A DNA stretch of 64,000 nucleotides from an uncultured Candidatus Saccharibacteria bacterium. GTDB taxonomy: Bacteria > Patescibacteriota > Doudnabacteria > UBA920. The position numbers and the translations under genes were made by a program. Below, one piece after another: positions 13,907 to 15,297 of this stretch. Each line of letters starts with the position of its first letter. Position 1 is the stretch's first letter. The notes beneath the pieces were generated by a model, which saw only the letters and a list, made by a program, of their open reading frames with translations, did not search any database and was not told the origin of the DNA. The stretch lies in contig CAZFTX010000003.1 of assembly GCA_964521955.1 (NCBI GenBank), positions 1,517 through 65,516 on the forward strand, given 5' to 3'.

Positions 13907-13913
13907 AAGAAAA

Positions 13914-13986
13914 ACGCCCGGGGGAAGGTAAGTTCACGCCTCTTTCAATCAGGCGCACACTTAACTTCCTTCCCGGACGTTTTTTG
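13914..13986. terminator. GC-rich bidirectional intrinsic terminator
   Basis: Long stem cgcccgggggaaggtaagtt...aacttccttcccggacg flanked by an A-run upstream and a T-run downstream. It can terminate the GC-rich gene at 14088-14687 on the minus strand. Confidence 0.6.
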
Positions 13987-14087
13987 CTTAGTATTCTATA
14001 CTCTTTCCTCCTTATCTGTGCCAGGCCCATGCATGAAGGCTAGGCACCATTCTTCTTTCTTCTTTAATGATTCGCAGAAACACCCAA

Positions 14088-14687
14088 CTAAATGATTCCT
14101 ACGTGTTTCTTAAATGCTTCCAAAGCAAATGGGATTATCACATCCCGATGCCCGGAGACAGTATTTGCCGGCAAAGCATTCACCGGAAACCACTGGCCGT
14201 TAGCCGGCTCACTTTGGGGAAAGGCCAAAAAAATCTTGCATTCGTACCAGCCCCTGCCTGTATTTTCCGGATAAACGTCGCCCACGAACACGAATTCAGT
14301 TGGGGTCTGAAACTCTTTTGCAACGAGCCTCTCCAAAGCACTCTCTCGCCCTGTGTCAGTATTGCGGAAACCGACCCCAAGCCCGGCCCATTGTGCAGAG
14401 TACCACTTGTCATCTTCAGGACGCTGTTCGAGAAGCACCTCAATCACACCGTTCTCCAGCTTACGAAACGCCACCCCCTCAGCCGCAATGTTGGTCATGT
14501 GGGGAGTCATAGCGTCGTACATCGTGGTACCCATGGGTGTCTTGGGATTTTTGAGGGAAAGCACGACGGCAATCGCACTACAAGCTCTAGCTTGATTTTC
14601 GGCAAATCCATTCTGATCAACCACCACCTGCCCCAAATTAACACCAATGAGAAACTCAATGGCATTTAATAGCTCCTGTGTCGACAT
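14088..14687 (-). CDS. Hypothetical Nudix-fold-like protein (GC-rich island A), paralogous to the genes at 14890-15297 and 36279-36929
   Basis: 199 aa from ATG at 14687 (MSTQELL...), preceded by AGGAGG at 6-nt spacing; the track's upstream M at 14768 is rejected. Local GC is far above background. Distant similarity to the adjacent AT-rich Nudix protein ('EVLLEQRPEDDKW' ~ 'EILLTYREDQWW'; 'EFVFVGDVYPENTGRGWYECKIFLAF' ~ 'KFLFPINYKKTPRGHDVSLVFFMHF'). The overlapping plus-strand ORFs look like antisense noise. Confidence 0.5.
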   Translation of the reverse strand: MSTQELLNAIEFLIGVNLGQVVVDQNGFAENQARACSAIAVVLSLKNPKTPMGTTMYDAMTPHMTNIAAEGVAFRKLENGVIEVLLEQRPEDDKWYSAQWAGLGVGFRNTDTGRESALERLVAKEFQTPTEFVFVGDVYPENTGRGWYECKIFLAFPQSEPANGQWFPVNALPANTVSGHRDVIIPFALEAFKKHVGII

Positions 14688-14765
14688 TCGACACCTCCTG
14701 AAATTTGTCTTTTCGTCAACCTGCCCCAACTGTGAGTGGAAATTGACTAAACATTCTACAATAAA

Positions 14766-14800
14766 CATACAAAAAAAGCAAGGCCAAAACCCTTTGCTTT
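14766..14800. terminator. Bidirectional terminator hairpin (A-run/stem/T-run)
   Basis: aaaaaaagcaaggccaaaaccctttgcttttttt: stem agcaagg/cctttgct flanked by A- and T-runs. It separates the AT-rich Nudix gene from the GC-rich paralog. Confidence 0.5.
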
Positions 14801-14889
14801 TTTTAAACTTTTTTACTTAAACCAATTTTAATTCCCGAAGCTTTTTATACAATATTTTATGTTCTTTTATTGTGTTTTTTGGTAAATTT

Positions 14890-15297
14890 TTAAAAAATGT
14901 TCCGTGTTGTAACATGCCTGACAAAATGCATAAAAAAAACCAATGAAACGTCATGTCCTCGAGGAGTTTTTTTGTAATTTATTGGAAATAAAAACTTAAA
15001 ATTTTTCAATTTAGCCCCAAGTTCATTTTTAGCAACTTTACCCAATCGAGTCTTGAAATCTTCATTCATTCTTAAAAGCCCACCCGGAATATGCCAGCCT
15101 TTCCACCACTGGTCTTCTCTGTAAGTTAAAAGTATCTCTTTCTTTGCATTTACCACAACCAATTCACAAGCAGAAAAAGGAACAATTTTAGTTAGTGCAT
15201 TAAAGACTTCCCCCGGCAAACCTTTTTCTGGATTTGGAAGCTTGCCTAAAAGTTCAACTAATTCTTTTATTTCCTTTTGAGTAATTTTATTCATCAA
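14890..15297 (-). CDS. Nudix hydrolase superfamily protein (degenerate Nudix box; GDP-mannose mannosyl hydrolase/WcaH-like context)
   Basis: 135 aa; 'GWHIPGGLLRMNEDFKTRLGKVAKNELG' matches the Nudix GX5EX7REUXEEXGU pattern except the REUXEE glutamates (KVAKNE). Size and layout resemble MutT. Confidence 0.55.
   Translation of the reverse strand: MMNKITQKEIKELVELLGKLPNPEKGLPGEVFNALTKIVPFSACELVVVNAKKEILLTYREDQWWKGWHIPGGLLRMNEDFKTRLGKVAKNELGAKLKNFKFLFPINYKKTPRGHDVSLVFFMHFVRHVTTRNIF

Follow-up and report, generated by a model that had tools for sequence, protein, structure and literature searches.

A GC-rich Nudix-fold gene in an AT-rich glycan-biosynthesis cluster as the probable remnant of a laterally acquired two-domain gene

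The question raised by this locus is how a GC-rich gene came to lie directly next to an AT-rich homolog in the midst of a glycan-biosynthesis cluster. The DNA in which it occurs (hereafter, the window) is a 64,000-nucleotide stretch of contig CAZFTX010000003.1 (GenBank assembly GCA_964521955.1) with a GC content of 36.8%, in which a long glycan-biosynthesis region, mostly encoded on the minus strand, extends from ~2 kb to 45 kb. In the interval 13900-14750 the GC content is ~50%, and this island holds a gene of 199 amino acids (aa), adjacent to an AT-rich gene of the Nudix family that we refer to as the resident gene. A sequence-only reading of the window had suggested that the two are distant homologs, and that the GC-rich gene is a laterally acquired paralog integrated beside its resident counterpart. 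Having compared the locus with related contigs and proteins (numbered with the prefixes L and P, respectively), we consider it probable that a Nudix-like gene with two domains was acquired laterally and later suffered a deletion, that the GC-rich gene is what remains of its C-terminal half, and that its neighbor was itself frameshifted. The AT-rich Nudix gene, the terminator hairpin that follows it, the GC-rich gene with its AGGAGG-N6-ATG start, and the GC-rich hairpin at its end were all found where the earlier reading had placed them (Table 1).

The much higher GC content of the 199-aa gene, which had also been noted beforehand, is evident at third codon positions (GC3), where it reaches 0.54, compared with a mean of 0.30 (sd 0.04) for the 46 other open reading frames (ORFs) of at least 200 aa in the window (z = 5.9). 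This deviation indicates a shift in codon usage, and amino-acid content alone would be insufficient to cause it. A search of 5.8 billion proteins returned six homologs of the GC-rich protein with 61-92% identity, and a further homolog with 50% identity is encoded in a genome, namely a Saccharibacteria metagenome-assembled genome (MAG). In a core of 140 codons, the sense frame has a ratio of nonsynonymous to synonymous change (omega) of 0.14-0.35, and the antisense frame one of 0.5-2.4. A long plus-strand ORF lies opposite the gene in exact antisense codon register, which is the frame prone to stay open opposite a GC-rich gene. It was rejected as a gene because of its omega, its lack of a Pfam match, and the larger number of stop codons in the antisense frame of L007 (five, vs. 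two in the window); the one or two stops in the other homologs do not discriminate, and L003 and L006 have a shorter antisense ORF. The minus-strand gene is therefore real, and it is this ORF, not the one opposite it, that is conserved, as the sequence-only reading had supposed. No Rfam family matched the window at its gathering score, and only chance-level matches were obtained in 13700-15000. Because protein homologs exist and omega is below 1, the GC-rich region codes for protein, and a structured RNA in place of the gene was rejected.

The GC-rich protein has no match in Pfam, even at E = 10, and none in NCBIfam, PADLOC, or PHROG. A profile search of 1.8 billion cluster representatives recovered 353 relatives, and 27 of the 42 family members that we sampled match Pfam NUDIX. 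With the family profile, solved Nudix chains are recovered at E = 1e-10 to 6e-7 (2fml, 1e-10; NrtR, ~1e-7), whilst the resident protein matches a family hidden Markov model (HMM) built without window sequences at E = 1e-20. Compared directly, the two window proteins align by BLASTP at E = 0.008 over 67 residues (~24% identity), and an hhalign comparison of C-type and resident-type profiles gave a probability of 94.4% (E = 9e-8, 130 columns). On these profile matches, the GC-rich protein has the Nudix (alpha/beta/alpha sandwich) fold, and both proteins are assigned to one uncharacterised Nudix subfamily, which upholds the fold and the distant homology first proposed for the pair. Some members of the family consist of two fused domains, N-type and C-type (P0007, P0008, P0010, P0055, and P0120; also P0203 and the gene in L015). 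In a neighbor-joining tree the C-type domains form a clade separate from N-type and generic sequences, in which the window protein stands beside the C-domain of P0007 (P0007_C) at a distance of 0.03. The resident gene falls with the large group of generic and N-type sequences, on a long branch and not nested among N-domains. Scanning metagenome contigs with the family alignment gave no match, and our search of the literature on tandem or double Nudix proteins, and on Nudix proteins with yersiniose or YerE, found nothing on this family.

A third paralog had been suspected in another GC-rich ORF of the window, island C (36279-36929, plus strand; 216 aa, GC 53%, GC3 0.62). This did not stand, since the protein is a remote Nudix-like one (Pfam NUDIX, E = 0.052) that scores 13 bits against the family HMM and lies outside the family. 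Its single homolog among the 5.8 billion proteins is 49% identical.

The complete Nudix box, GX5EX7REUXEEXGU, is absent from both proteins. The box of the GC-rich protein reads G104, T110 (for E), a 3-aa insertion, R120, L121 (for E), K124 (for E), E125, and Q127 (for G), so that its Nudix helix is R120-L-V-A-K-E125 and box positions E6, E15, and E18 are T, L, and K. In the resident protein the corresponding residues are G72, E78, K86 (for R), V87 (for E), N90 (for E), E91, and G93. The REUXEE helix thus keeps only the Arg (Lys in the resident protein) and the last Glu in either protein. Because the resident pattern (E at position 6, K-V for R-E, N-E for E-E) is conserved in 20 orthologs, the odd box of that gene is a family trait and not decay. 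In the C-type family alignment D111, E115, and H180 are invariant, and the window protein has the C-type motifs MYDA.TPH and AGLGVGFR..D...SAL.RL..KEF...GRGWYECK. The family also has a C-terminal motif of its own, W..(x)LP..TV..HR..IIP, and the C-type protein carries an extra N-terminal helical segment of ~45-60 residues that is modeled with low confidence.

What the GC-rich gene derives from is apparent from the same slot in relatives. In L008, L009, and L015, the place before the rfbH/DegT gene is taken by one intact GC-rich gene of ~1.2 kb, which encodes two Nudix-like domains (398-409 aa) and has a GC content of 51-52%, with a GC3 of 0.54-0.55 in both halves vs. 0.26-0.34 in its neighbors. 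P0007 (398 aa, L008) and P0203 (409 aa, L009) fall in the 90%-identity cluster of the window protein, and the C-terminal halves of all three genes are ~91-97% identical to it. At the DNA level, L009 is 92-93% identical to the window across the locus and L015 83-84%; L008 is 86% identical downstream and has a different upstream block, in which a NeuB/cupin gene and a faint GDPGP1_C-like gene replace those of the window. Window positions 19993-14671 align to L009 1292-6621, and 14657-14118 to L009 7232-7771, whereas L009 6622-7231 is without counterpart in the window; the same break is seen against L008 and L015. The alignment to L009 stops 17 nt inside the two-domain gene. On balance, the window gene is 597 bp (199 codons) shorter, having lost the entire N-type domain.

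In the window, ~7 codons from the start of the ancestral gene run in frame into its interdomain linker helix. Upstream of the junction, the window gene retains the terminator position, the block TTGTAGAATGTTTAGTC (kept in the window, L008, and L009), the Shine-Dalgarno sequence (SD), the ATG, and the first codons (M-x-x-x-E-L-L) of the two-domain gene, and this start region is homologous to that of the two-domain gene in L008 and L009. Past the junction, it reads the interdomain linker, E-I-L-D-A-G-E-F-L-I-G. The N-type domain is not encoded upstream in frame in the window; only the C-domain remains, and the layout of the product is that of the natural single-domain C-type proteins P0002, P0003, P0004, and P0009. 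In the DNA alignment the two ends of the deletion have similar codons (GAG-CTx-TTx and GAG-ATT-TTG), consistent with recombination between the paralogous N-terminal helices of both domains. Changes private to the window gene comprise three synonymous and three nonsynonymous substitutions; all three of the latter adjoin the junction and none lies in the 140-residue core. Aligned to the fused protein of L007, the window protein is 50% identical to the C-half and 27% identical to the N-half (E = 6e-18). The proposal of a laterally acquired paralog beside a resident counterpart was thus right as to homology and foreign composition, but the unit in question is not a whole paralog; it is a C-domain left by a 597-bp deletion.

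The resident gene carries a lesion as well. As called, its ORF (14890-15297, minus strand) encodes 135 aa that match Pfam NUDIX at 26.5 bits (cutoff, 21.1). Its best NCBIfam match is GDP-mannose mannosyl hydrolase (PRK15434; 28.2 bits, E = 1e-6; cutoff, 146), and its orthologs carry the Joint Genome Institute (JGI) name WcaH. Past residue 121 the called frame diverges from the family, and the +1 frame reads G-T-F-F-K-N-L-P-K-N-T-I-K-E-H, which encodes the family C-terminal LP..T...H motif. When one T is removed from the run of eight at 14939-14932, the frame that opens with the ATG at 15294 stays open as far as the TAA at 14819-14817 and yields a protein of 158/159 aa, sharing 95% identity with P0154 and 85% with P0155 (both intact, 158 aa). 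The run is T8 in the window and in Logan contig L001, T7 in six contigs (L009-L014), and interrupted in L015. The resident gene is therefore truncated by a +1 frameshift in this genome, and its intact form has 158 aa. It probably starts at the ATG at 15294 rather than at the TTG one codon upstream, which fits the MNKITQ of its orthologs. The 135-aa gene had been described as having a degenerate Nudix box; the box is incomplete, but the 135 aa are the result of truncation and, as noted above, the box pattern is shared by orthologs.

The slot between the resident gene and rfbH is polymorphic. In L010-L014, with flanks ~92% identical to the window, it holds a different GC-rich cassette, composed of a Nudix gene with a canonical box and a HAD-like gene (L010 6602-8084; 255 aa with GC3 0.62, and 232 aa with GC3 0.55, respectively). 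The HAD-like protein of this cassette is 36-38% identical to the HAD-like neighbor of the C-type gene in L002, L003, and L007. No empty slot was found among the related contigs compared. C-type homologs occur in the ~50%-GC contigs L002 and L003 and in the 48%-GC Saccharibacteria MAG (L007; P0008, CAYOXN010000003), which provides the only genome match for the GC-rich protein. In L007, a fused N+C gene follows a thiamine diphosphate (ThDP) enzyme (44% identical to that of the window), an epimerase (60%), and a HAD-like gene; all of these have a GC3 of 0.52-0.62, and the C-type gene is not compositionally unusual there. Foreign origin is the best reading of the contrast between a GC3 of 0.54 and one of 0.30, and a plausible source would be a higher-GC donor like this Saccharibacteria MAG, with its fused gene in a partly syntenic cluster. 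The lateral acquisition proposed by the sequence-only reading is thus supported by foreign composition, but it is not specific to this genome, given that lineages separated by a synonymous divergence (pS) of 0.5-0.6 in their flanking genes also have the gene in this slot. No integrase, transposase, or other mobility gene was seen in the flanks of the slot. The GC-rich protein and the fused form have no PADLOC or PHROG match, nor is there a viral contig match, and a phage or defence origin was ruled out on these grounds. It was also ruled out that the GC-rich island is a copy of another such island in the window, as blastn of the island against the window gave nothing beyond the self-match.

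Sequence identity varies along the locus in a strongly mosaic pattern. For the window vs. L015, pS is 0.20 in the C-domain core and 0.51-0.60 in five flanking genes (Fisher p = 7e-12), while pS in the N-domain of the two-domain gene, for L015 vs. L009 and L008, is 0.44-0.50. The core was measured over window 14118-14560 against L015, L009, and L008, and its value is about three times below that of the flanks. Recombination in a mosaic locus is the simplest explanation for the low pS of the C-domain, with constraint on synonymous sites as the alternative. The C-terminal tail of the gene (...KKHVGII) and the 3' untranslated region (UTR), at window 14020-14087 with ~59 extra nt, match L008. The tail in L009, L015, and L004 is different, ending ...GRSADKEESL, and this points to a recombination breakpoint inside the cassette.

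From these observations we propose that a two-domain gene with the codon composition of a ~50%-GC donor would have entered a polymorphic slot between the resident wcaH-like Nudix gene and rfbH, in the CDP-dideoxyhexose and ThDP-enzyme glycan cluster of an AT-rich bacterium, probably a member of the Candidate Phyla Radiation (CPR; Patescibacteria), as suggested by homologs in the Saccharibacteria MAG and under a Doudnabacteria name. An in-frame deletion of 597 bp between the similar N-terminal helices of the two domains then removed the N-terminal domain, leaving the original promoter, SD, and start codon to drive what would now be a single-domain protein. The adjacent resident Nudix gene has its +1 frameshift in the T run.

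Two independent lesions in adjacent genes of one family, in the same genome, also suggest another course of events, in which the frameshift and the loss of the N-domain were steps in losing a dispensable Nudix module and the C-domain gene is a non-functional remnant. All three Nudix-type domains are intact in relatives, and the private changes listed above are too few to show selection. However, the reading frame was preserved exactly across the deletion, as were the promoter, SD, start codon, and terminator, the product has a layout found in natural single-domain C-type proteins, and its core has no private nonsynonymous change; we regard such decay as possible, though not the likely outcome. 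Another view, that the remnant still works with its neighbor, would make the resident and C-type proteins jointly equivalent to the fused N+C protein but encoded by two genes, the resident protein replacing the lost N-domain. Many Nudix enzymes are dimers, the fused proteins show joint function of the two domain types, and in the neighbor-joining tree the resident gene belongs to the N-type and generic group, outside the C-type clade. Yet the relatives carry the resident gene in addition to a full N+C gene, so no N-domain is being substituted there, and in this genome the resident gene is frameshifted; its long branch, apart from the N-domains, is a further reason why we think a split heterodimer unlikely. 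It would be far more surprising still if the GC-rich gene had arisen by local tandem duplication of the resident gene, with selection, or an overlapping antisense gene or RNA structure, driving its composition. The two genes are adjacent and of the same family, and the low pS of the C-domain core relative to its flanks could reflect synonymous constraint. They are, however, only ~24% identical, the GC-rich gene sits in a separate C-type clade whose members in ~50%-GC contigs and the Saccharibacteria MAG are compositionally ordinary, the antisense ORF is not conserved, no Rfam family is present in the region, and recombination in the mosaic locus can account for the low pS. We consider this origin highly improbable.

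Several points weigh against the reading that we favor, that of a laterally acquired two-domain gene reduced to its C-domain. No donor was identified, and the nearest higher-GC homologs are only 50-66% identical. The C-type domain is without a Pfam or NCBIfam match and without three of the four box glutamates, which makes catalysis by it doubtful. In the AF2 model of the two-domain protein, the domains are confident but their mutual orientation is undefined (pTM 0.45). All NCBIfam scores in the cluster are below the curated cutoffs, so the assignments are at family level only, and the substrate is assigned from gene neighborhood alone. Lastly, the deletion and the frameshift both come from one genome. 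Over 10.5 kb that take in the T8 run as well as the deletion junction, Logan contig L001 shows 100% identity to the window, but it may share the same reads, and its agreement is therefore compatible with a genuine feature peculiar to the sample or with an error in the reads; when JGI metagenomes were searched for exact copies of the junction, none was found. Could both the deletion and the extra T then be errors in a metagenome-assembled contig? Homopolymer length errors do occur, and the junction is present in no second sample. Against this, L001 was built independently and agrees at both sites, the DNA of the two domains is too dissimilar for a collapsed repeat, only a few bases match at the junction, and the deletion is exactly 199 codons. 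An assembly or sequencing artefact is, in our view, quite unlikely.

The features of the locus are collected in Table 1. The hairpin behind the resident gene folds at -12.8 kcal/mol (z = -2.1), and L008 and L009 also have a hairpin at the equivalent position, the stem in L008 being of another sequence. The hairpin at the end of the GC-rich gene (13984-13911, followed by a T run) is much stronger, at -43.2 kcal/mol (z = -6.3), and none of 200 shuffles folds as well; it is kept, with two substitutions, in L004 and L005. A consensus promoter scan gave no call in the block at 14700-14760.

Table 1. Features around the GC-rich gene (window coordinates)
Feature	Position	Strand	Basis
Resident AT-rich Nudix gene (wcaH-like family)	14817..15297	-	Pfam NUDIX; orthologs
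T8 homopolymer, source of the +1 frameshift in the resident Nudix gene	14932..14939	-	Comparison with T7 in relatives
Hairpin with A and T runs on both sides: terminates the resident gene and bounds the cassette unit upstream	14771..14804	.	Terminator scan
Putative promoter and 5' UTR of the GC-rich gene	14700..14760	-	TAGAAT -10-like hexamer at 14758-14753; inferred
Shine-Dalgarno AGGAGG (14699-14694), 6-nt spacer, ATG (14687-14685)	14685..14699	-	Direct sequence reading
Deletion junction	14657..14671	-	Alignment to L009, L008, L015
GC-rich 199-aa gene: N-terminal helix and C-type Nudix-fold domain with degenerate Nudix box	14088..14687	-	
Shadow ORF in exact antisense codon register, not a gene	14067..14669	+	Omega; stop counts; no Pfam match
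Long GC-rich hairpin and T run, intrinsic terminator of the GC-rich gene	13905..13984	-	Fold energy
Sigma-70-like promoter TTGACC-17-TATAAT of the downstream rfbH/DegT gene	13878..13906	-	11/12 positions match

Related contigs showed further irregularities. In L006 (459-911), downstream of a C-type homolog with 64% identity (gene GC 55%), the contig has a GC content of 24%, with 150-nt windows at 15-18%, and this may be another GC-rich gene in a very AT-rich context. L008 has another GC-rich island in an AT-rich relative, namely a gene for a B12-binding radical SAM protein (5792-7594; GC 52%, GC3 0.63). In the JGI contig L005 (1-1080), a DUF3160 coding sequence is fused in frame to the last two-thirds of the C-domain, and the DegT gene is followed for ~140 bp before the contig departs from it again; a chimeric assembly is the probable cause, a real rearrangement the less likely one.

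The genes of the cluster indicate the pathway in which the Nudix proteins may act. They encode a glucose-1-phosphate cytidylyltransferase fused to a CDP-glucose 4,6-dehydratase, a second cytidylyltransferase-like protein, an RfbH-like CDP-6-deoxy-4-hexulose 3-dehydrase (356 bits), an acetolactate-synthase-like ThDP enzyme, an epimerase/reductase of the short-chain dehydrogenase/reductase (SDR) family, and a HAD phosphatase. At family level, this gene content suggests a CDP-dideoxyhexose pathway with a ThDP enzyme, which we take to resemble the CDP-3,6-dideoxyhexose pathways with a YerE-type branching step. Judged by their neighbors, the Nudix proteins most likely bind or hydrolyse a nucleotide sugar of the pathway, probably a CDP-sugar. 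The recurrence of a HAD-like partner suggests a two-step release of free sugar, with the HAD phosphatase possibly acting next. The C-type domain itself may be a single-metal hydrolase or a non-catalytic partner. A bolder proposal is that it is a conserved pseudo-Nudix subunit, deprived of most metal-binding glutamates, that senses nucleotide sugars or lends specificity to a catalytic Nudix domain in CPR glycan pathways; its GC-rich sequence, with a pS about three times below that of its flanks and of the N-domain in the same gene, would then be held by a second DNA or RNA constraint and not result from recent transfer. This we consider very unlikely.

Elsewhere in the window, island B (32948-33790, plus strand) is a GC-rich ORF of 280 aa (GC 51%, GC3 0.56) with no Pfam, NCBIfam, PADLOC, or PHROG match, and, as called from a TTG start, it is absent from the protein collection. 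Between islands B and C lies an SDR gene (34012-35061, minus strand) whose cluster members are named CDP-paratose 2-epimerase by JGI, and its GC3 of 0.45 is the highest of the 46 background ORFs. A 1157-aa ORF at 45295-48768 (minus strand) is without a Pfam match and lies in a stretch that, unlike the rest of the window, has a GC content of 40-43% and near-zero GC skew.

Within the Nudix superfamily (PF00293), the nearest solved structures are the Enterococcus MutT/nudix protein 2fml, the Nudix domain of NrtR (3gz5/3gz8), and 3i9x. The GC-rich protein resembles these in its profile match and in the Arg and last Glu of the Nudix helix (R120, E125), but differs from the superfamily in having no Pfam or NCBIfam match for the C-type domain, a 3-residue insertion in the box loop, an extra N-terminal helical segment, and a C-terminal motif of its own. 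GDP-mannose mannosyl hydrolase (Gmm/WcaH/NudD; PDB 1rya, 2i8t) is likewise a Nudix protein from glycan clusters and provides the best NCBIfam match of the resident gene, and its box is presumably reduced in a similar way (R-L-x-x-x-E with a single Glu left). However, the resident gene scores 28.2 bits against the 146-bit cutoff, the GC-rich gene does not match at all, and the window cluster is of the CDP-hexose kind and not for GDP-mannose, GDP-fucose, or colanic acid. By sequence, 2fml and NrtR are closer to the window family than this hydrolase is. The catalytic His of the hydrolase could not be mapped onto the family, in which H180 is invariant.

The closest counterparts of the window protein are the fused two-domain proteins (P0007/L008, P0203/L009, L015, P0008, P0010, P0055, and P0120), of which it represents the C-domain; with the N-domain missing (597 bp), it is single-domain like P0002-P0004 and P0009. 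As a locus, the slot resembles the cassette replacement seen in O-antigen and capsule clusters, with a variable segment of atypical composition between conserved flanks, alternative cassettes, and mosaic identity. It differs from these in that the atypical segment is GC-rich in an AT-rich genome, is one or two genes long, and has no mobility genes in its flanks.

The locus does not overturn current understanding. What it presents is cassette swapping and decay in the ordinary setting of a glycan locus, together with a divergent Nudix variant and not a new kind of system. Its value lies in being a clear and datable example of how surface-glycan clusters diversify in small, AT-rich (probably CPR) genomes, by the entry of short foreign cassettes into a fixed slot and their subsequent remodeling as domains are deleted and frames shifted. 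A second contribution is the definition of an uncharacterised Nudix subfamily of ~350 representatives, some with two tandem domains, including a C-type clade that is missed by Pfam and NCBIfam and associated with CDP-sugar pathways and a HAD-like phosphatase. This association leads to a testable biochemical hypothesis, namely that these proteins may serve to remove the nucleotide from an activated sugar.

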